NCBI GenBank assembly: GCA_028692545.1
Contig: JAQUXC010000005.1
Coordinates: 1 to 62,216 of the forward strand
Direction: 5' to 3'
Length of the DNA: 62,216 nucleotides
Source: Patescibacteria group bacterium
Lineage (GTDB): Bacteria; Patescibacteriota; Patescibacteriia; UBA1558; S5-K13
The number at the start of each line of letters is the position of its first letter. The first letter of the stretch is position 1. The notes beneath the pieces were generated by a model. That model was not told where the DNA came from, searched no databases, and worked only from the letters and a program-made list of their open reading frames with translations. Shown here piece by piece: positions 14,851 to 52,335 of the stretch. Position numbers and translations under genes: made by a program.

Positions 14851-14868
14851 GTGTGATATAATAAAAAA

Positions 14869-23200: not shown

Positions 23201-23547
23201 TATTTTTAAGAATAATAATAACAATATTTATACTATCAACACTTATAAAATTATTCCAAACCAAAAAGTCTGGAAAAATTTCAACTTTGAATTTCCTATT
23301 ATGGAGTATATTATGGATAAGTGTTGGAATAGTTTTTTACAAACCAGAATTATCTACGCAATTTGCAAAAACACTTGGTATAGGTCGTGGTGCTGATTTG
23401 ATGATTTATGCTTCAATAATAGTAATATTTTATTTAATATTCAAAATTCTTGCCAAATTTGAAAGAATAAATGCAGATATTACAAAAATTACAAGAAGTA
23501 TTGCAATTTCAAAAGCAGAGGACAATAGAAAAGATGAAACCCGTTAG
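23197..23547 (+). CDS. DUF2304 family small membrane protein
   Basis: 116 aa with 3-4 TM segments and the motif TLGIGRGADLMIYASI. It overlaps the GT2 stop (ATGA), which is the usual GT2-DUF2304 pairing. Confidence 0.7.
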   Translation: MIFLRIIITIFILSTLIKLFQTKKSGKISTLNFLLWSILWISVGIVFYKPELSTQFAKTLGIGRGADLMIYASIIVIFYLIFKILAKFERINADITKITRSIAISKAEDNRKDETR

Positions 23548-23624
23548 ATAATGTATTTAATAAATAATACAAAATCTAAATAGATCAAAATAAAAATTAT
23601 GTGACACACAATAACAAAAAAATA
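23534..23624. repeat. Direct repeat copy 2, paired with 21414-21504
   Basis: It contains the real 3' end of the DUF2304 gene and a dead copy of the galE start (GTGACACACAATAACAAAAAAATAATTTAA). Confidence 0.85.
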
Positions 23625-23647
23625 ATTTAAAAATAATCTAAACTAGT

Positions 23648-24706
23648 ATGGAATTTGACAAAAAAGTAGCCGTAATAGTAGTAAACTACAATGGCAAAAA
23701 ATTTTTAGATGATCTTTTTGAATCATTAAAAATCACAAAGTATCCAGCAGACAAATGGAAACTTGTATTTGTAGACAACAATTCCGCCGATGATTCTCTA
23801 GAATACGCAAAAGAAAAATATCCTTTCGCACATTTTATAGAAAACAAAGAAAATTTAGGATTTACTGGTGGAAATAATTGTGGAAGCGATTGGGCTATAG
23901 AAAACAATTATGATTATATATTTTTGCTAAATCAAGACACGATAGTTACATCAGACTGGCTAAATATATTAGTAGAGACAATGGAAAATGATTTGACGAT
24001 TGCATGTCTTCAACCAAAAATATTACTTCACCCAGAAGTAGAAAAAATAAACACAGCTGGAAACAAAATAAATTTTCTTGGTTTTGGATATAGCACATTA
24101 AATGGAATAAAAGATGAAGGACAAATAAAATATTTAAGCGATATAAATTACTGCTCAGGAGCTGGTGTTCTTATAAGAGTTGATTTTATAAAAAAAGTTG
24201 GACTTTTTGATGATGAAATGTTTTTTGACTTGGAAGATTTGGATCTTGGCTGGAAAGCACAAATGTTGGGATATAGAAATGTAATAAATCCTCGTGCCAT
24301 AATGTACCACAAATACAAATTTGGTGGCGCAGGAAAAAGAATGTATTTTACAGAAAGAAATAGATTTATAGTATTTTATAAAAATTACAAAACAGCAACT
24401 AGAATTTTGCTTTTGCCAATGTCTATAGTAATGGAATTTGGAATTTTGCTTTTTGCACTAAAAAATAAATGGTTGAAATACAAAATACAAAGTTATTTTT
24501 ATTTTCTAAATCCAAAAAATTGGAAATACCTTAGAAGAGCAAAGAAAAAAATTCAATCACTTAGAACTGTAAAAGATGTCGATATAATGAAAAAGTTTAC
24601 TCCTGTAATAAATTTTCAAGAAATAGACAATCCACTTCTAAAATATGTTGGAAATCCTATAATGAAACTTTATTATTGGCTTATGATACTAATTATAAAA
24701 TGGTAG
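23648..24706 (+). CDS. GT2 glycosyltransferase (rhamnosyltransferase-like) with C-terminal TM segments
   Basis: VAVIVVNYNGKKFL, FVDNNSADDS, FLLNQDT, DLEDLDLGWKAQMLGY. Confidence 0.85.
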   Translation: MEFDKKVAVIVVNYNGKKFLDDLFESLKITKYPADKWKLVFVDNNSADDSLEYAKEKYPFAHFIENKENLGFTGGNNCGSDWAIENNYDYIFLLNQDTIVTSDWLNILVETMENDLTIACLQPKILLHPEVEKINTAGNKINFLGFGYSTLNGIKDEGQIKYLSDINYCSGAGVLIRVDFIKKVGLFDDEMFFDLEDLDLGWKAQMLGYRNVINPRAIMYHKYKFGGAGKRMYFTERNRFIVFYKNYKTATRILLLPMSIVMEFGILLFALKNKWLKYKIQSYFYFLNPKNWKYLRRAKKKIQSLRTVKDVDIMKKFTPVINFQEIDNPLLKYVGNPIMKLYYWLMILIIKW

Positions 24707-25857
24707 AAAATACAAAAAAAATATCTCACATAGTTTGTGTATTTCCACCTTACAATGGTGGAATAGGTACAGCAGCTCAAAAACAAGCTAAAATTGGCCA
24801 AAAATTTGGCTATAATGTCTCTGTATATACCCCAAATTATCAAAAAACAGGCGATATTAGAGACGTAATAGAAAATATAGATATATACAGACTAAACCCA
24901 AAATTTACACTAGGAAACGCAGGATATATTAATATTTCAAAATATTTAAAAGATGCTGATATTATTCATCTCCACTATCCATTTTATTTTTCAATGATTC
25001 CTGTAATATTGTTTGCCAAAAAACACAAAATAAAAGTTTTGACTTTCTGGCATATGAATCCAAAAGATGTTGGACTAAAAGGATTATTTTTTGTGCTTTA
25101 TGAAAAATTTGTTACGCCTTGGATATTCAAAAATTCTGACAAAACATTAGTAAGCACAAGTGATTATTTTTTGAATAGTTCTACAAAAAAATTATTTGAA
25201 AAAAATAAAAATAAAATACAAGAATTAGCTTTTAGTGTAAACACAGAAAATTTTAAACCGCGAGAAAAAAATTTTGAATTAATTGAAAAATATAATTTGA
25301 TTGGAAAAAAAGTTTGTATATTTGTTGGTGGACTGGACAGGGCACATTATTTCAAAGGACTTGAAATAATACTTCATGCATTTACAAAATTAAATGATAA
25401 TTATAGATTGCTTGTTGTAGGCATTGGAGATATGAAAGAATATTATAAAAATCTTACAAAAGAATTAAAAATTGAAGAAAAAATAATATTTCTAGATTCT
25501 ATACAAAACAACGCACTTCATAAATACTATAATTTGGCTGATTGTCTTATACTTGCTTCTATAAATCAAGGTGAAGCATTTGGAATAGTGCAACTTGAAG
25601 CAATGTCTAGTGCAATCCCTGTAATAGCATCTGATTTACCAGGGGTAAGAACAGTTCTAAAAGACAATGAGACTGGATTTACTTTCAAAACTGGCAATGC
25701 AAATGATTTATCTGATAAAATAAAAAAACTTTTTGAAACAGAGGATTTGCTTATAAAATTTGGTAACAACGCGAGAGAAAGAGTATTAGAAAATTATAGT
25801 GATGAAATAATTTCACAAAAATTGAATTCAATATATGAAAATATGCTTAATAAATAG
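24700..25857 (+). CDS. GT4 (GT-B) glycosyltransferase
   Basis: The EAFGIVQLEAMSSAIPVIASDLPG (E-x7-E region) is present. ATG 24700 overlaps the upstream stop (ATGGTAG); the track start 24676 is a TTG. Confidence 0.85.
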   Translation: MVENTKKISHIVCVFPPYNGGIGTAAQKQAKIGQKFGYNVSVYTPNYQKTGDIRDVIENIDIYRLNPKFTLGNAGYINISKYLKDADIIHLHYPFYFSMIPVILFAKKHKIKVLTFWHMNPKDVGLKGLFFVLYEKFVTPWIFKNSDKTLVSTSDYFLNSSTKKLFEKNKNKIQELAFSVNTENFKPREKNFELIEKYNLIGKKVCIFVGGLDRAHYFKGLEIILHAFTKLNDNYRLLVVGIGDMKEYYKNLTKELKIEEKIIFLDSIQNNALHKYYNLADCLILASINQGEAFGIVQLEAMSSAIPVIASDLPGVRTVLKDNETGFTFKTGNANDLSDKIKKLFETEDLLIKFGNNARERVLENYSDEIISQKLNSIYENMLNK

Positions 25858-26995
25858 CTTTTTCTATCCAGATAAAAAAGGTGGCGCTGAGACAGTAGTG
25901 TACAATATTGCAAATGAACTGAAAAATAGAAACTACAAAGTAGTTGTAATATGCGCAGGATTAGAAAAAGAAAAAACAACCGAAGAATATTTGGATGGTT
26001 TTAAAATATATAGAGTAGGCTTCGATAAATATTTTCCATTTCATAATATTGATAATGAAAATATATTTTCTAGACTCTTATGGAGAATACATCAATTCAA
26101 TAACAAATTCTCATCAAAAAATATACAAACTATAATAACAAAAGAAAATCCAGATTTAATTCTTACTCATAATGTTTTGGGACTTGGATATAATATCATA
26201 AAAGATATAAATAAATTCAAGAAGAAACACATCACAACGATTCATGACGTACAACTTGTAATTCCATCCGGTGTAATGACGAAAGAAGCAAAAATAAATG
26301 ATATAAATAAAATTTATATGTTTTTTACAAAAAATATATATAGAAAATGTAAGTACATTATAAGTCCATCTCAAAAATTAGTAGATTTTTATTCAAAATA
26401 CAAATTTTTCCAAGATGCAAAAATAAATATATTACCAAACCCAATACAATTGCAAAAAATAAGTACACAAGAAAAAAAACATGATGAATTAAAAGTTTTG
26501 TATATTGGACAACTTGAAGAGCATAAAGGATTATCTGATCTTATAAAAACATTCAAAAAATTGGACGCAAAAAAATTTCATCTTACAATAGCTGGTCGTG
26601 GACAAATGGCAGAAAAAATAAATAATATTGCCTATACTGTAAGTAATATAGATTTTGTAGGAGAATACTACGCTCAAAAAAGAATAAAATTACTAGAAGA
26701 AAGTGATATAGTTGCAATTCCATCAAAATGTTTTGAAAATTCACCAATGGTAATGTATGAATCATGGCTTTCTGGTGTTCCTGTAATTGTTTCAGATTTT
26801 GGTGGATTACCAGAATTAATAAAAGAATACAAAAATGGCTGGACTTTTGAAATGGGAAATATTGATGATTTGAAATTAAAGTTAGAAGATATATACAAAA
26901 ACAAGGAAAAATTAGATGAAATATCAAAATATTGTCTAGAATATGTAAAAAAGTTTGATGTTTCTAAATATGTAGATAAAATATTAAATATTTAA
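25835..26995 (+). CDS. GT4 (GT-B) glycosyltransferase
   Basis: MKICLINSFFYPDKKGGAE and ENSPMVMYESWLSGVPVIVSDFGGLPELI. Confidence 0.85.
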   Translation: MKICLINSFFYPDKKGGAETVVYNIANELKNRNYKVVVICAGLEKEKTTEEYLDGFKIYRVGFDKYFPFHNIDNENIFSRLLWRIHQFNNKFSSKNIQTIITKENPDLILTHNVLGLGYNIIKDINKFKKKHITTIHDVQLVIPSGVMTKEAKINDINKIYMFFTKNIYRKCKYIISPSQKLVDFYSKYKFFQDAKINILPNPIQLQKISTQEKKHDELKVLYIGQLEEHKGLSDLIKTFKKLDAKKFHLTIAGRGQMAEKINNIAYTVSNIDFVGEYYAQKRIKLLEESDIVAIPSKCFENSPMVMYESWLSGVPVIVSDFGGLPELIKEYKNGWTFEMGNIDDLKLKLEDIYKNKEKLDEISKYCLEYVKKFDVSKYVDKILNI

Positions 26996-27003
26996 CCCCC
27001 CCC
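26996..27003. repeat. Homopolymeric C8 tract immediately after the GT4 stop codon
   Basis: TTTAA-CCCCCCCC-TGCAAAGCGGG, 23 nt upstream of the GtrA-like ATG. Confidence 0.95.
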
Positions 27004-27026
27004 TGCAAAGCGGGACAAGAAAAAAG

Positions 27027-27464
27027 ATGGAAAATATTTTTGAAAAAATAGAAAAAAAAGATAAATTCTTCTCAAAAAAAACAGGAGTACATTTTTTTAC
27101 ATATTTGCTTGTGGGTGGTATTGGAAATTGTATTGAGATAGTAATTCTTCTTATGCTTGTAGAAATATTTAATATTTGGTATCTATATGCATCTATTATT
27201 ACATTTACATTAGGAACCATACTTTCTTTTGGCATGAGAAAAATTTTTATTTTCAAAAATAAAGGATTTAAAAAAATACACAAACAAATAGCTTCTTATA
27301 TTTTTATGTTTATTATAGAACTTTGTATAAATTATTTTATAATGACTTTTTTTGTAGAAATATTTAAACTACACTATTTAATGGCTTATATAACATCTAT
27401 TTTGATAGCTAGCGTAACTGGTATAGCAGGTTTTTTATGGAATAAAAATGTCACTTTTAGATAA
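27027..27464 (+). CDS. GtrA-like membrane protein (second copy in the window)
   Basis: 145 aa with 4 TM segments and the pattern FFTYLLVGGIGNCIEIVILLML...FGMRKIFIFKNKG. Confidence 0.72.
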   Translation: MENIFEKIEKKDKFFSKKTGVHFFTYLLVGGIGNCIEIVILLMLVEIFNIWYLYASIITFTLGTILSFGMRKIFIFKNKGFKKIHKQIASYIFMFIIELCINYFIMTFFVEIFKLHYLMAYITSILIASVTGIAGFLWNKNVTFR

Positions 27465-27473
27465 AAATACCTA

Positions 27474-27482
27474 CCCCCCCCC
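27474..27482. repeat. Homopolymeric C9 tract in the promoter region of the large surface-protein gene
   Basis: CTA-CCCCCCCCC-TCATATTT. The tract ends 13 nt upstream of TATAAT. Confidence 0.95.
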
Positions 27483-27492
27483 TCATATTTTG

Positions 27493-27501
27493 TGATATAA
27501 T
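27493..27501 (+). promoter_or_regulatory. Extended -10 promoter element (TGaTATAAT)
   Basis: TG at 27493-27494 and TATAAT at 27496-27501, 53 nt upstream of ATG 27555. The expected -35 position falls inside the C9 tract. Confidence 0.5.
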
Positions 27502-27554
27502 TAATATTATTAAAATGATTAATATTATTTTAAAAAAATATTAATAATAACATT

Positions 27555-29930
27555 ATGAAAAAAATAAACAAATATATAATACTATCATTTTTTGTATTTC
27601 TATTTTTTATAATAAATACAAATACTACAAAAGCAGCAACAAGCACTATAGATAGTATTCAAGATCTATACAATATAAGAAATAATTTATCAGGAAATTA
27701 TGAATTAGGTGCTAATCTAGATTTTGATGATATAAATAGTTATGATGTAACGACTTCAACAACAGGATATGATACAGTGGCAGAATTCAAAACAGCAATG
27801 ACTAGCGGAACCGGGTGGTTGCCGATTGGAGATTATGATAATAAATTTATGGGAAATTTAGATGGAAACAGTTATACAATATCCAATCTATTTATAAATA
27901 GACCAACAACTGATTCTATAGGATTATTCGGATATACAAATGGAGCAAGTATTACAAATATATTTTTAGAAAATGTTGAAATAACGGGAAGAAATGGTGT
28001 TGGTGGATTGATTGGTGTAGCTTACATGATAAGCAGTCTTTATGTAGAAAATTGTGGTGTCCAAGGAAATGTAAACAGTACTCACATGAGTGTGGGGGGA
28101 CTCATAGGTGTAGCTCAGTTATTAGGTATAAAACAAATATTAAATTCATATGCTATAGTAGATGTAACAGGTAGTGCAACACAAAATATTGGTGGACTTG
28201 TAGGAGAAAATTCAGCTACTATATCAAACTCCTATTCTTCTGGTAATGTAAGTGGAACAGGGACCTATATAGGTGGATTGGTTGGCTACAATACTGATTT
28301 TGGAAATATTATAAATTCCTATGCAACAGGACGTATAAGTAAAAAAGATGGAGGCTCAGGTGGATTAATTGGACGCAACCAAGGGACAGTCATAAATAGT
28401 TATTATAATTCAGAAACAACTGGACAAATTGATACCAGAAAAGGAGATTCCAAGACAACGCTACAAATGACAAGTAGTTCTACATTTATTGGTTGGGACT
28501 TTGACACTATTTGGAATATTGAAGAAGGTTCAAGTTATCCATATCTAAGACATCAGAACGATATTTTATTATACAATTATCCTATTATTGTTACTTTGGA
28601 AAAAGATATATCGGTCAGTGATTCGGACTATATATTAACATTATCCTGGAATCCAGTAATTACTCCTTCTGATTATACATTTTTAGGATATGATATATAT
28701 CGTAATGATATAAAAATAGTTGATTATACCTTTGAAACCGAGTATATAGATAATATACTTGAAATAGAAACTGATTATAATTATTATGTAAAAGCAACAT
28801 TTCAAAAAGACCCAGAGCAACTTATAACAACTTCAAATATTGTTTCATTTAAATTATATGAGGTTTCCTCTGCTGATGATCTAAATAATATAAGAAGTGA
28901 TTTAAATGGCTATTATATACAAACTACAAATATAAATTTAGCTGTATCTCCATACAACGAAGGAACTGGATGGGTTCCCATAGGAAATAGTAGTACTAAA
29001 TTTTCTGGAACATTTGATGGAAATAACCACACAATTTCTAATCTTTTTATTAATAGTGCTGATAGTTATGGTGTTGGTTTATTTGGTATTAATTCATATC
29101 TTGCTACGCTAAAGAATGTATCTTTAGAAAATATTGATATTACAAATGGTGTTAATTGGGCTTGGGCTATTGGTGGATTGGTGGGGGAAAATAATGGTAG
29201 TATAATAAATTCATATACAACTGGTAATTTACATGAAACAGACGAAAGTGGAGAGGGTATTGGTGGATTGGTGGGGGATAATTATTTTTTAATTGATAGA
29301 TCATATTCAAATGTAAATGTTATTGGTGGTGATTGGGCTATTGGTGGACTTGTAGGAGAGAATCGTGGTATTATTCTAAATTCTTATTCTACTGGAAGTG
29401 TTAGTGGGGTTCTAGATTCTGTAGGTGGATTGGTGGGGGCAAATTATGATGGTATTATAGAAAATTCCTATTCTACAGGTTTAGTCACTGGGCTTACAAA
29501 TGTGGGTGGATTAGTTGGGGATCATGATGATGACTATATCACATCCTCCTACTACAACTCACAAACATCAGGTCAATCAGATGATGATGGAAGAGGTACT
29601 CCTAGAACTACATTAGAGATGACATATCCATATGATGATAGTGAAAATGATACTTATGTAGATTGGGATTTTGTTGATACTTGGCATAGCGATATAAATT
29701 TAAATGTTAACAATGGTTATCCAGTTAACTATACTTATATAGATTCTGTAGGACCAGTCATAACAATTCTAGGATCAAATCCATTATCAATATACAAAGG
29801 AGATAGTTATTATGATGAAGGAGCTACAGCTATAGATGCAGTAGATGGAGATATAACAAATGATATATGTAGATATAAATACAGTAGGATCATATACTGT
29901 CACATATGTAGTATCAGATTCTGCTACTAA
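27555..29930 (+). CDS. Large secreted GLUG-motif repeat surface protein, N-terminal part. Its frame is broken near 29860-29870.
   Basis: A signal peptide is present. GLUG-type repeats recur (VGGLIGV, IGGLVGEN, IGGLVGYN, SGGLIGRNQGTVINSYYNSETTGQ), and there is a second such block. The ORF ends inside an Ig-like GDSYYDEGATAIDAVDGDITND module. Confidence 0.85.
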   Translation: MKKINKYIILSFFVFLFFIINTNTTKAATSTIDSIQDLYNIRNNLSGNYELGANLDFDDINSYDVTTSTTGYDTVAEFKTAMTSGTGWLPIGDYDNKFMGNLDGNSYTISNLFINRPTTDSIGLFGYTNGASITNIFLENVEITGRNGVGGLIGVAYMISSLYVENCGVQGNVNSTHMSVGGLIGVAQLLGIKQILNSYAIVDVTGSATQNIGGLVGENSATISNSYSSGNVSGTGTYIGGLVGYNTDFGNIINSYATGRISKKDGGSGGLIGRNQGTVINSYYNSETTGQIDTRKGDSKTTLQMTSSSTFIGWDFDTIWNIEEGSSYPYLRHQNDILLYNYPIIVTLEKDISVSDSDYILTLSWNPVITPSDYTFLGYDIYRNDIKIVDYTFETEYIDNILEIETDYNYYVKATFQKDPEQLITTSNIVSFKLYEVSSADDLNNIRSDLNGYYIQTTNINLAVSPYNEGTGWVPIGNSSTKFSGTFDGNNHTISNLFINSADSYGVGLFGINSYLATLKNVSLENIDITNGVNWAWAIGGLVGENNGSIINSYTTGNLHETDESGEGIGGLVGDNYFLIDRSYSNVNVIGGDWAIGGLVGENRGIILNSYSTGSVSGVLDSVGGLVGANYDGIIENSYSTGLVTGLTNVGGLVGDHDDDYITSSYYNSQTSGQSDDDGRGTPRTTLEMTYPYDDSENDTYVDWDFVDTWHSDINLNVNNGYPVNYTYIDSVGPVITILGSNPLSIYKGDSYYDEGATAIDAVDGDITNDICRYKYSRIIYCHICSIRFCY

Positions 29931-30900
29931 TACAAGTACATCTACAAGAGTAGTAAATGTATTAGCAAGACCGTCATCTGGATCAACAGGTGGAGGTGGT
30001 GGATCAACTGTTGTTGTACCACCAACTATACCAACATATTCTACAACTGTTACACCAGCAAATGGTGGAACACTTAATTATACATTTTCTGATAGTTCTG
30101 CTATTACTGTTGTAGTACCAGCTAATACTGTAACATCTAATACTACAATTACTGTAAGCGAAGTGTCATTAAGTACTGATAATACACCAGGCAGTGGTAC
30201 TGGTGCATTTATGATAGGAGGAAGTGTATTTAATATTACAGCAATAGATATTAATAATAGTTCTATTACATCATTTACTAATAATCTAACTATATCAATA
30301 ACATTATCTAGTCTACCATCTGATACATCTAATCTAGGAGTATATTATTATGATTCAATATCTGATAGTTGGATATTAATAGAAAATGCTGTATTTGATA
30401 CAACTACAAACAAAGTAACATTTACTGTAAATCATCTAACCATATTTGCAATATTTAATATTGCAGGAATACCATCTACTATTGATACAACAAGTGTTGA
30501 AAGTGATATACCACAATCATTCTGGACTACTGGTAAATGGGTAAAGACAGAGGATAGATCTACTGTATATTTTGTAGATAGTAATAATGATAGACATGCA
30601 TATCCAAATGAAAGTATATGGTATTCATACTTTAATGATGATTTTTCATTTGTAAGTACAATAACCAAAGAAGAACTAGCTACTTATACATTAAAGAATA
30701 ATGTTCCATATAATACTGGTATACTATTTAAAATACCAACAATAGCAAAAGTATATGTTGTAGGAGTAAATGGACTTATACAATGGATAGAGACAGAAGA
30801 AAAAGCAATAGAATTATATGGTACTAATTGGAATAAACTAGTTCATGATTTACCAGATGAATTGTTTGGGGATTATGTATTAGGAGATGATATTGAATAA
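29860..30900 (+). CDS. C-terminal part of the same surface protein (+1 frame). It contains an Ig-like module, a Ser/Thr-rich region and a C-terminal domain.
   Basis: YVDINTVGSYTVTYVVSDSATNTSTSTRVVNV continues the domain interrupted in the previous ORF. This frame is open only from 29857. Confidence 0.8.
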   Translation: MIYVDINTVGSYTVTYVVSDSATNTSTSTRVVNVLARPSSGSTGGGGGSTVVVPPTIPTYSTTVTPANGGTLNYTFSDSSAITVVVPANTVTSNTTITVSEVSLSTDNTPGSGTGAFMIGGSVFNITAIDINNSSITSFTNNLTISITLSSLPSDTSNLGVYYYDSISDSWILIENAVFDTTTNKVTFTVNHLTIFAIFNIAGIPSTIDTTSVESDIPQSFWTTGKWVKTEDRSTVYFVDSNNDRHAYPNESIWYSYFNDDFSFVSTITKEELATYTLKNNVPYNTGILFKIPTIAKVYVVGVNGLIQWIETEEKAIELYGTNWNKLVHDLPDELFGDYVLGDDIE

Positions 30901-31005
30901 TTGCAAAATAGTATAATATAAAATCTCACCTATGTAATAGTTTAATTAACTAATAGGGTAATTATTAATCGATACAAAAAATAGAGTTTTTTATATGTAA
31001 AAAAA

Positions 31006-33123
31006 CTAGTAATTTACAGGCACGTTATACTCAAATATAAAGGCTTTTCCAGAATCTACTTCTACCCAATTGTTGGCCAATTTTTTATGCTCATCAATAA
31101 GTTTATCAGTAAACTCCCAATAATCATTCAAAACTACAAATATAGTATTTACTTCAACTTTTTTTGCAGTATTAACGGCTGCCTCTTTTTTATTTTTTTC
31201 TTCTTTTGTCATATCAAGAAAATCTGAATAAATATTATCTTTTATTTTTGTAGGAAGTGAATAATAAAATTCATTTTTATAATATTTTCTAAATCCATAC
31301 TTACTTATAACAGTTGCTCCAAGTGTTTGATCGCCCAATACTACATAATTTCTATTATCAAAATTTTGTTCTATATAATCTACTATTTTTATATGAGTAT
31401 CAGACATACTGTATCCATGAAAATTCTCATATTTATCCACTCTAGGATAACTAAAATAAAAAGAAATAGATAAAAACAAAGACAAAGATACAAAAACAAA
31501 TATTCTAAAAATATGCTTATTTTCTACAAAGCTCTTTATGAGAAGAACTATTCCCACCATAAAAAATGGCAATAAAAAATAAAAACTTAAATTAAATATA
31601 CGCTCAGAGAAATCAGATAAAAATGGAAATTTTATATAAGTTATAACTATAATATAATTTACAATAAGAATAAAAAACATCATTAAATAAGTAAAATAGG
31701 TTTTTAATTGCCTATAATATATAACAAAAATTATTCCCAAAATACTTATTATAAGAATAACTAAATTAACATTTCTTCCATACAAATATACAAGATCAAA
31801 AAAATTTACAAATCTTGGCCAAAAAATATTTTCAGGAACAAGATTCATAAGTAAATTATTTCCCATCATTTGCTCTAAACTTGAAAAATTTATTTTCTTT
31901 ATAAAACCATAAATCCAAAAAGCAACTGGCAGTGCAAAACATGATGAAATTGCAATAATCCAAAATGCAAAATTTTTAAATATTGTCTTTATAATCATTC
32001 CTTTTTCTTCAAACATGTGATAAATCCAGGTAAGTAATATAAAAAGAATAATTGGCAAACCACTAAGTGGATGAATAAAACAAGTTGCAATTCCTAAAAT
32101 GAAAAGTGGCCAAACACTAGAAAATCTATTATTTATAAAGGAAATTGCAAAAAATATTATTATCAAAACAAATATATTTGCAAGAGATTGAGGTGTAGTG
32201 TATGTAAAATTTGCAAATGGTATAAGAAGAAAGGAAAGTACTGATACAAAAATTATATTATTTTTTATAAAAAGATTTTCCTTTAGGCTCTGATAAATAA
32301 CAACTGGTAAAAATAATGAAGCTACTACTGGCACCAAAAGCTTATCAAAAAATACAACTGATTGAGCAAAAATTTTACTCAAAATAACTACCAAACTATA
32401 TTGCCCCAAATAATAAAAAGGTTTTGGTGAAAAAGTACCAACTTGCATCATAAGTTTTTCTGACGCTTGATGAAGATAAGGATCGTACCCAAAACCAAGT
32501 TTATATACAAAAATTATCACACAAAAAGAAAGAAAATAGTGCAAAGAAACAAAAAAAATGAAAACATCATTTTTACTAATAAGAAGTAATAATATCAAAA
32601 TAAATGTTGATAATCCATATATAAAAAATATATTTGGAGACAATACTTGCCAAGGTGAATTTATGCTAAGCTCTATTGCCTTTGAAATAAAATATTTAAA
32701 CTGTGTATAACACAAAAATAAATATATTGCAGAAAATATCGCTTGCAACAAAACTATAAACGATAATTCTGGAAAAGAAAATTCCAGAATAAATGGTTCT
32801 TTTATTAATTTAAATCCCAAAAACAAAGGAGCAAAAATTAATATTATGGATACGGCAATATTTGACAATATAAACAAATAATAAAAAATACTTCCAAAAA
32901 TCATAAAATAAGCAAATATCATCAAAACACCAAAAAACAATTTTGATATAAACTTATATTTAGAAAAAAAGTAATGCCCGGAAAATATTCCAAAATAAAT
33001 AATATAAATAAAGCCTACAATTATGGATAAATTCGTATTTTGAAAAACAAAAAAATTAACAAGTAATGTCGATATTATCAAACAAGTAAATATATAATAC
33101 ATTTTCCAAGAAACCTTCAACAT
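31006..33123 (-). CDS. Large polytopic membrane protein (about 15 or more TM segments plus a C-terminal soluble domain). It may be a GT-C/YfhO-like glycosyltransferase or polymerase.
   Basis: 705-aa ORF, extremely hydrophobic, divergent from the GT-C-like gene at 33208. No family motif was recognised with certainty. Confidence 0.7.
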   Translation of the reverse strand: MLKVSWKMYYIFTCLIISTLLVNFFVFQNTNLSIIVGFIYIIYFGIFSGHYFFSKYKFISKLFFGVLMIFAYFMIFGSIFYYLFILSNIAVSIILIFAPLFLGFKLIKEPFILEFSFPELSFIVLLQAIFSAIYLFLCYTQFKYFISKAIELSINSPWQVLSPNIFFIYGLSTFILILLLLISKNDVFIFFVSLHYFLSFCVIIFVYKLGFGYDPYLHQASEKLMMQVGTFSPKPFYYLGQYSLVVILSKIFAQSVVFFDKLLVPVVASLFLPVVIYQSLKENLFIKNNIIFVSVLSFLLIPFANFTYTTPQSLANIFVLIIIFFAISFINNRFSSVWPLFILGIATCFIHPLSGLPIILFILLTWIYHMFEEKGMIIKTIFKNFAFWIIAISSCFALPVAFWIYGFIKKINFSSLEQMMGNNLLMNLVPENIFWPRFVNFFDLVYLYGRNVNLVILIISILGIIFVIYYRQLKTYFTYLMMFFILIVNYIIVITYIKFPFLSDFSERIFNLSFYFLLPFFMVGIVLLIKSFVENKHIFRIFVFVSLSLFLSISFYFSYPRVDKYENFHGYSMSDTHIKIVDYIEQNFDNRNYVVLGDQTLGATVISKYGFRKYYKNEFYYSLPTKIKDNIYSDFLDMTKEEKNKKEAAVNTAKKVEVNTIFVVLNDYWEFTDKLIDEHKKLANNWVEVDSGKAFIFEYNVPVNY

Positions 33124-33207
33124 AATAATATTTTAACACATTTTTAAACTAAATTATATCATTAACCCTACTTTTACAAAAACCATATCCTTCGCTATAA
33201 TAAAAGC

Positions 33208-52290: not shown

Positions 52291-52335
52291 AAAATCAAAA
52301 GAGTATTTTTTTATATTTTATGATAAAATATATTA

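Follow-up and report, generated by a model that had tools for sequence, protein, structure and literature searches.

In Neisseria meningitidis, transcription of the outer-surface protein gene opc is reportedly controlled by a poly-C tract in its promoter, with functional lengths of about 11 to 14 C. For this promoter, PMC5084427 refers to Sarkari et al. 1994. We describe a run of nine C residues in a 62,216-nucleotide stretch of DNA (the window, meaning the whole stretch that was analysed) from a bacterium of the Candidate Phyla Radiation (CPR). The two tracts occupy the same place, immediately upstream of the -10 element and at the position of a -35 hexamer. Both are also linked to surface proteins: opc encodes the outer-surface protein under control, and here a surface-protein gene, presumably the controlled one, lies downstream. 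The differences concern the organism, the copy number, and the tract itself. The opc promoter is a single locus in a host-adapted proteobacterium, whereas the tract described here belongs to a multi-copy module in a CPR genome; the genes are unrelated; and tracts of 6 to 10 C, whose effect on expression is presumed, stand against the 11 to 14 C of opc.

The vlp family of Mycoplasma hyorhinis provides a multigene precedent, in which each gene has a conserved promoter containing a poly-A tract, according to the account in PMC10502178 that cites Citti and Wise 1995. There, as here, a reduced genome carries a family of surface-protein genes, each with a conserved homopolymer-containing promoter followed by a conserved signal peptide. 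The vlp layout allows combinatorial ON/OFF expression, and the family described here likewise has one SSR promoter per member. The architecture differs: the vlp poly-A lies between the -35 and the -10, whereas the poly-C lies upstream of an extended -10 that has no -35. In addition, the vlp genes encode lipoproteins and are clustered in one locus, in contrast to genes on at least three contigs whose signal peptide has no lipobox cysteine.

Helicobacter pylori and Campylobacter jejuni offer two further comparisons. The T-tract of the H. pylori sabA promoter acts as a “rheostat”: experiments showed that tract length alters how UP-like DNA aligns with the core promoter (PMC4081817). The homopolymer again sits at or upstream of the -35 position and not in the spacer, the proposed action is through UP-like A/T-rich DNA, and the organism has few classical regulators. 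The sabA tract consists of T/A and not of C, and its mechanism comes from experiment where ours comes from analogy. In C. jejuni, the tracts of the poly-G/C phasome are concentrated in loci for surface glycosylation and surface structures, and a minority are intergenic (PMC8355987, PMC8437040). The likeness lies in G/C homopolymers that stand out in an A/T-rich genome at surface-glycosylation loci; the difference is that most Campylobacter tracts are intragenic frameshift switches, whereas both tracts of the window are intergenic and one sits in a duplicated promoter module. By analogy, the opc poly-C promoter and the sabA rheostat would be the nearest mechanistic precedents, and in function the locus looks like a promoter contingency locus.

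The poly-C tract and its promoter

The C9 tract occupies positions 27474 to 27482 of the forward strand, at the 5′ edge of a conserved promoter module. The forward strand reads ...GATAAAAATACCTA-CCCCCCCCC-TCATATTTTGTGATATAAT-TAATATT..., the stop codon of the upstream gene being at 27462 to 27464 and the next ATG, which opens a good signal peptide, at 27555. The original prediction of a C9 tract and of the extended -10 TGATATAAT (27493-27501) was exact in both coordinates. Its placement of the C residues at the -35 position also holds, as the hexamer at a 17-bp spacer would be ACCCCC (27473-27478).

That such a run is unlikely by chance is clear from the base composition. The window is 27% G+C, and its counts of C runs of lengths 1 to 5 fall as 5701, 869, 124, 15, and 1; the distribution then jumps to one C8 and one C9, the only C runs longer than five in the 62 kb. 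A first-order Markov model predicts 0.11 G/C runs of at least 8 and 0.022 of at least 9 in 62 kb. Because of this distribution and this expectation, we regard the tract as real and beyond chance; C9 and C8 are both uninterrupted SSRs of the kind found at contingency loci.

Downstream of the tract lies the conserved promoter core (27483-27501, forward strand). It comprises a T-rich stretch, a TRTG (-16) element, and the -10 hexamer TATAAT (27496-27501), and is near-invariant in six copies of the module. Between the end of C9 and the -10 hexamer of TGTGATATAAT (27491-27501) there are 13 nt, so the repeat lies next to the predicted promoter, as at contingency loci. The evidence for a promoter comes from the longer form of the motif. 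By itself TGNTATAAT is not above chance in the window, with 10 occurrences found against 11.9 expected. TRTGnTAnAAT, a Gram-positive-type “-16” extended -10, has eight matches in the window, six of them intergenic even though intergenic DNA makes up 9.4% of bases. All six are in the sense orientation, 6 to 53 nt before a start codon. This concentration upstream of genes, together with conservation in relatives, upholds the predicted promoter.

The same analysis revises the role given to the tract. We found no -35-like hexamer at any workable distance from the -10 at 27491 to 27501, and no recognisable -35 in the sister TRTGnTAnAAT promoters of the window. The 27491-27501 element is very probably a real, -35-independent promoter; the poly-C would therefore be an addition upstream of it and not a substitute for a needed -35. 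The tract had been read as part of a -35/-10 spacer, where slippage would re-space the two hexamers as in porA and vlp, with the repeat between them. No repeat lies between a -35 and a -10 here, nothing upstream is conserved among the copies, and promoters of this type generally lack a -35. Since there is neither conserved upstream DNA nor a -35, we reject the classic re-spacing mechanism as stated.

The predicted 5′ leader spans 27502 to 27554 (forward strand), with a transcription start that would fall near 27508, and is almost the same as the leader of a paralog (L020). At three other genes of the window, exactly 6 nt separate the ATG from the end of a TRTGnTAnAAT match (14852-14862, 33130-33140 on the reverse strand, and 52319-52329). 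Shine-Dalgarno sequences are absent before the genes of the window. This spacing, with no Shine-Dalgarno sequence, suggests that leaderless mRNAs are frequent in the organism.

RNA and DNA structures were also considered as explanations and rejected. RNA folding leaves the C9 region unstructured. The small hairpin at the second tract (C8, described below) is no better than those of shuffled sequences (z = -0.8), and an A/U-rich hairpin at 27483 to 27558 (-15.2 kcal/mol, z = -4.7) is not conserved in the related locus L004. In read-through transcripts, the latter would pair UCAUA, just past the C tract, with UAUGA at the start codon. We therefore discard a terminator or RNA-structure role for the tracts; the terminator reading is further weakened by a paralog (L021) in which a separate terminator-like hairpin, rich in G+C, precedes the tract by 11 nt. 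An invertible promoter (inverton) is rejected as well, with no convincing inverted repeats around 27400-27600 and no recombinase among the annotated neighbouring genes. The Rfam matches in the window are two tRNAs.

A module repeated before surface-protein genes

The gene downstream encodes a GLUG-repeat surface protein. Its first ORF (27555-29930, forward strand; 791 aa) has an N-terminal signal peptide, five Pfam Glug matches, Peptidase_M26_N, and the first half of Bact_surface_Ig-like. A second ORF (29860-30900, forward strand; 346 aa) continues the gene in another frame, so that the Ig-like domain (PF16403) is split between the two, with the frameshift at about 29866-29868. The original prediction of a gene of roughly 1100 aa thus stands as regards the surface protein and fails as regards a single ORF: there are two overlapping ORFs, of 791 and 346 aa, in different frames. 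Compared with the intact L020 paralog, a 14-nt gap lies at about 29866; it could be a pseudogene lesion or a repeat-induced misassembly. The contig of a fourth paralog, P0102, ends at the same motif as the gap site (DITNDIVTTSN).

The product is of the surface-exposed type usual for contingency loci, with a signal peptide and GLUG and Ig-like repeats, and with gtrA and glycosyltransferase genes as neighbours. The signal peptide, MKKINKYIILSFFVFLFFIINTNTTKAATS, has no lipobox cysteine, and the protein does not qualify as a lipoprotein. The wider family is a domain mosaic (L020 6001-8838, P0098; L021 6001-8759, P0106; L004 4442-7564). Its parts are “YTSIAIDxTGTPYVVY” propeller-like repeats, GLUG repeats, an Ig-like domain, and a common C-terminal domain, combined differently in each member behind similar signal peptides (MKK[IL]NKY...).

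Tract, promoter, and surface-protein gene form a replaceable cassette (27465-31005, forward strand) between gtrA and a convergent 705-aa gene. Across relatives, the slot lies after the last GT4 gene and upstream of a convergent gene of about 700 aa; in the window, L004, and L006 it is downstream of gtrA. Its content varies: the GLUG gene in the window, a propeller-repeat protein gene in L004 (4315-7566), nothing after gtrA in L006 (1624-1630), and a 276-aa gene directly after the GT4 gene in L018 (9168-10150).

A separate observation concerns the beginning of the window. Positions 1 to 2100 are 41% G+C, against about 27% elsewhere, and encode a protein with a T9SS Por_Secre_tail sorting domain; the L018 relative likewise encodes a Por_Secre_tail protein. 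The first 2 kb could reflect horizontal transfer or a chimeric contig end.

The module recurs within one genome. A 17-kb stretch of the MAG GCA_028708725.1 (JAQVYI010000009.1) is identical to the window, and the same MAG holds the closest homologs of the window GLUG protein: P0098 (contig 1, JAQVYI010000001.1, L020) and P0106 (contig 22, JAQVYI010000022.1, L021). Upstream of P0098 we find C10 (L020 5919-5928) followed by TCATATTTTGTGATACAAT, with a leader and first codons almost identical to those of the window; upstream of P0106 we find C9 (L021 5943-5951) followed by TCATAATTTTGTGATATAAT. Three surface-protein paralogs in this MAG (window/L001, L020, and L021) thus each have their own SSR promoter, as in the vlp family. 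The suggestion that such tracts form a theme in a reduced genome gains support accordingly, with at least three GLUG genes of the same genome carrying the module. In about 86 kb of sampled genome, which is a small sample biased towards GLUG genes, the four C runs of at least 8 are the three promoter tracts and the gtrA tract.

Beyond this genome, a GTDB scan with N-terminal alignment places C9 before the GLUG gene of L023 and C6 before that of L022 (Ca. Komeilibacteria S5_K13). In L022 we take the run to be an interrupted one (C-A-C6), and the core is slightly degraded. The related loci L004 and L005 carry the module with C7 before a different, non-homologous surface gene. Two other close homologs, L024 and L025, have no module before them. 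L023 (CAZWVD010000064.1) is labelled “uncultured Gammaproteobacteria bacterium”; at 30% G+C and collinear with L022, including the poly-C module, it is probably mislabelled. The lineage was reached through proteins: exact and degenerate DNA pattern scans for the tract and promoter gave no match in GTDB genomes, JGI metagenomes, or IMG/VR. Single-protein scans of genome contigs with GtrA and CTP synthase found no relatives.

The six copies share a clear design. Their upstream flanks are unrelated, all of them A/T-rich, and the conserved block begins at the tract. The -10 hexamer follows the tract at 13 to 14 nt, and the ATG follows it at 48 to 111 nt. The tract therefore belongs, as had been claimed, to a genuine promoter region of a surface-protein gene, and is conserved as a tract.

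An uninterrupted run kept at a fixed distance to the -10 in six copies, despite unrelated upstream flanks, could also mean that the poly-C is a fixed cis-regulatory element. It would then be a regulator site, or be recognised by an RNA polymerase subunit or an alternative sigma factor; selection would act on C-richness, and length differences would be tolerated drift. That there is no -35 to re-space, that lengths cluster at 9 to 10 in the one genome sampled, and that the consensus length is stable in three assemblies all agree with this explanation. We nevertheless consider it unlikely. The lengths range from 6 to 10; the second tract has no promoter module, so that C-richness beside a promoter cannot explain both tracts; and that second tract changed by 2 nt within DNA otherwise about 99.9% identical (see below). 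In addition, no promoter element or regulator site of bacteria is known to us to be a plain C homopolymer.

GLUG-family genes in other phyla provide a side observation. Long G/C homopolymers lie at or just upstream of the 5′ ends of some of these genes: G12 in Eubacteriales (L073 2989-3000; 139 nt upstream), and C12 and G20 in Dehalococcoidia (L089 205-216; L091 2492-2511). These could be independent SSR switches or two-colour-chemistry poly-G artefacts.

Tract lengths at related loci and a second tract

The first reading overlooked a second run, C8, at 26996 to 27003 (forward strand). It directly follows the GT4 glycosyltransferase gene (25835-26995, forward strand; Pfam Glycos_transf_1 and Glyco_transf_4), whose TAA stop abuts it, and ends 23 nt before the ATG of gtrA. 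The latter (27027-27464, forward strand) encodes a small membrane protein of 145 aa (Pfam GtrA_DPMS_TM, E = 3e-18), and is thus bracketed by two poly-C tracts. These genes belong to a surface-glycosylation cluster of GT2, GT4, GT4, and gtrA; a PMT_2-type transferase, epimerases, and a flippase are encoded close by. The C8 before gtrA may be a second slippage site; no promoter module is attached to it. Starting from a weak promoter-like sequence, TTGATG-16-TAAAAT (26955-26982), a gtrA transcript would carry C8 at its extreme 5′ end. Translational read-through from GT4 into gtrA, or a fusion of the two, by way of this tract is rejected, as the TAA stop precedes it.

Two orthologous loci, L004 (ENA) and L005 (Logan, from another study), are about 90% identical to 23215-27514. 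Both tracts are present at the same positions, as C6 and C7, and the extended -10 (TATGGTATAAT) is again 13 nt from the tract. At 27514 the homology of L004 ends; beyond this point lies a repeat-protein gene that is not homologous and whose signal peptide is similar. The window and L004 form a recombination mosaic, in which 739 bp (26315-27053) are near-identical and neighbouring DNA is 67 to 90% identical. Within these 739 bp, L004 and L005 differ from the window by one substitution and by C8 versus C6; the segment is otherwise about 99.9% identical. Because the C8/C6 difference sits in a segment with a single substitution, the length of the gtrA tract has changed on a timescale when almost nothing else did.

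More distant loci set the limits of this distribution. In L006, 82 to 85% identical, both tracts are absent and 27462-31006 is missing altogether. Among the distant syntenic relatives L015 to L019, we found no G/C runs of at least 6 in 4.5 to 17 kb. The gene that follows GT4 in L015 and L018 is instead preceded by a TTGACA hexamer and a GGAGG. A syntenic relative (Ga0233431_1000003) lies on a 952-kb contig.

These loci make up a consistent pattern of length polymorphism between conserved flanks: C9 versus C7 and C8 versus C6 between the window and L004/L005, and C9 versus C6 between L023 and L022. Comparison with related genomes, proposed at the outset, bears out the expected variation, with promoter tracts of C9 in the window, C7 in L004/L005, C10 in L020, C9 in L021, C9 in L023, and C6 in L022, next to a near-invariant core. 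As a sequence comparison, such length variation beside a near-invariant core is the signature used to nominate SSR phase-variable loci. Ordinary indel drift in a homopolymer retained for some other reason could also account for the differences among lineages and paralogs.

A present-or-absent, swappable unit of tract, promoter, and gene raises the possibility that the tract is the edge of a surface-protein cassette that is mobile or undergoes gene conversion, as a recombination or template-switch hot spot or an insulator, and is kept for cassette exchange. Paralog homology does start at the tract, and the window and L004 are a recombination mosaic. The boundaries themselves argue otherwise. 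Relative to L006, the indel starts on its left side at the gtrA stop (27461/27462), with 12 nt still to go to the tract; the divergence of L004 starts past the -10, at 27514, and not at the tract; the C8 lies inside the near-identical recombinant segment and not at its edge; and no recombinase, inverted repeats, or other repeats flank the cassette. We judge this explanation improbable.

The ends of two assembly contigs bear on the same question. The Logan contigs L012 and L013 (SRR22315503 and SRR22315505) both stop at base 27500, 18 nt past C9, as expected under the cassette explanation if the k-mers of the module repeat in the graph. The final 31-mer of each begins at 27470, a C/T site at which L004 differs. 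In an assembly graph with k = 31, pure tract-length polymorphism would end paths at 27503-27504. Since the observed end is at 27500, we do not read these ends as a sign of tract heterogeneity; we infer instead branching at the repeated promoter module or co-occurring strains. Length variation within the population did not appear: three assemblies from a single study (the MAG contig and the Logan assemblies of SRR22315503 and SRR22315505) all have C8 and C9, as consensus sequences that would hide minor variants. Their identical lengths neither support nor exclude minority variants.

Homopolymers are error-prone, and several related contigs break nearby; a sequencing or assembly artefact, through two-colour-chemistry poly-G or a homopolymer miscall, must also be weighed. 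It has a negligible probability. The tracts are short and internal, flanked by conserved coding and promoter sequence. They appear at homologous positions in the NCBI MAG, in the Logan assemblies of two SRR runs, and in the ENA and Logan assemblies of ERR1193289, each length recurring in independent assemblies while differing between lineages, and homologous tracts occur in two GTDB representative genomes. This cross-study reproducibility effectively refutes the artefact.

A candidate contingency locus in CPR bacteria

We put the probability that C9 is a copy of a repeated poly-C promoter module, whose slippage tunes or switches surface-protein genes, at about 50%. The tract and the multi-copy module exist, the motif behaves like a promoter signature, and tract length is polymorphic between lineages. 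The target genes encode secreted repeat proteins and sit in a replaceable cassette beside a glycosylation cluster, the usual context of contingency loci. On these sequence grounds, the locus is a good candidate for a promoter contingency locus in a CPR bacterium.

The proposed mechanism runs as follows. A module consists of an uninterrupted poly-C tract (6 to 10 C) and, at a fixed 13 to 14 nt, a -35-independent extended -10 (TTTTGTGATATAAT); it precedes, by 48 to 111 nt, the start codons of secreted surface proteins of the GLUG family or with propeller repeats. The tract would gain and lose C residues by slipped-strand mispairing during replication, through slippage presumed to be frequent and reversible. 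Tract length would in turn alter how the core promoter and the A/T-rich DNA upstream of it are positioned relative to each other, and thereby change transcription. As no conserved upstream element exists to be re-spaced, the sabA T-tract rheostat serves as the analogy for this presumed effect on promoter output. Tuning or switching would then act on each surface-protein gene independently and generate combinatorial surface variation. At the window copy switching may be moot, because the downstream gene is frameshifted.

A broader proposal, which we make tentatively and as a possibility somewhat short of probable, extends this mechanism to the lineage. Komeilibacteria-related CPR bacteria would carry a “phasome” of dispersed mosaic GLUG/propeller adhesin genes with their own poly-C promoters, plus the gtrA poly-C site, and slippage would produce combinatorial surface variants for host attachment or phage escape. 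The label CPR-like, used at first, is borne out by protein names: those of GCA_028708725.1 are “Patescibacteria group bacterium,” and GT4 homologs are named Komeilibacteria, Uhrbacteria, and Magasanikbacteria. Ca. Komeilibacteria is a member of the Parcubacteria/Patescibacteria group.

The claim that contingency loci are undescribed in CPR-like genomes agrees with the literature searched: we found no link there between SSR phase variation and Patescibacteria. A single paper, on an unrelated subject, uses both “Patescibacteria” and “phase variation,” and the group goes unmentioned in a 2025 review of the field. As far as that literature shows, promoter contingency loci have not previously been described in this lineage. 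To our knowledge, work on phase variation has dealt almost exclusively with pathogens and commensals. CPR bacteria combine tiny genomes and a small set of regulators with an attached (episymbiotic) way of life, in which surface proteins and glycans decide which hosts are bound and which phages bind. If the proposed reading is true, the Candidate Phyla Radiation would gain its first contingency-locus system, and the carrier would be a non-pathogen from environmental samples. Promoter homopolymers that switch an adhesin-like family would give these bacteria bet-hedging without regulators, as in Mycoplasma, Campylobacter, and Helicobacter.
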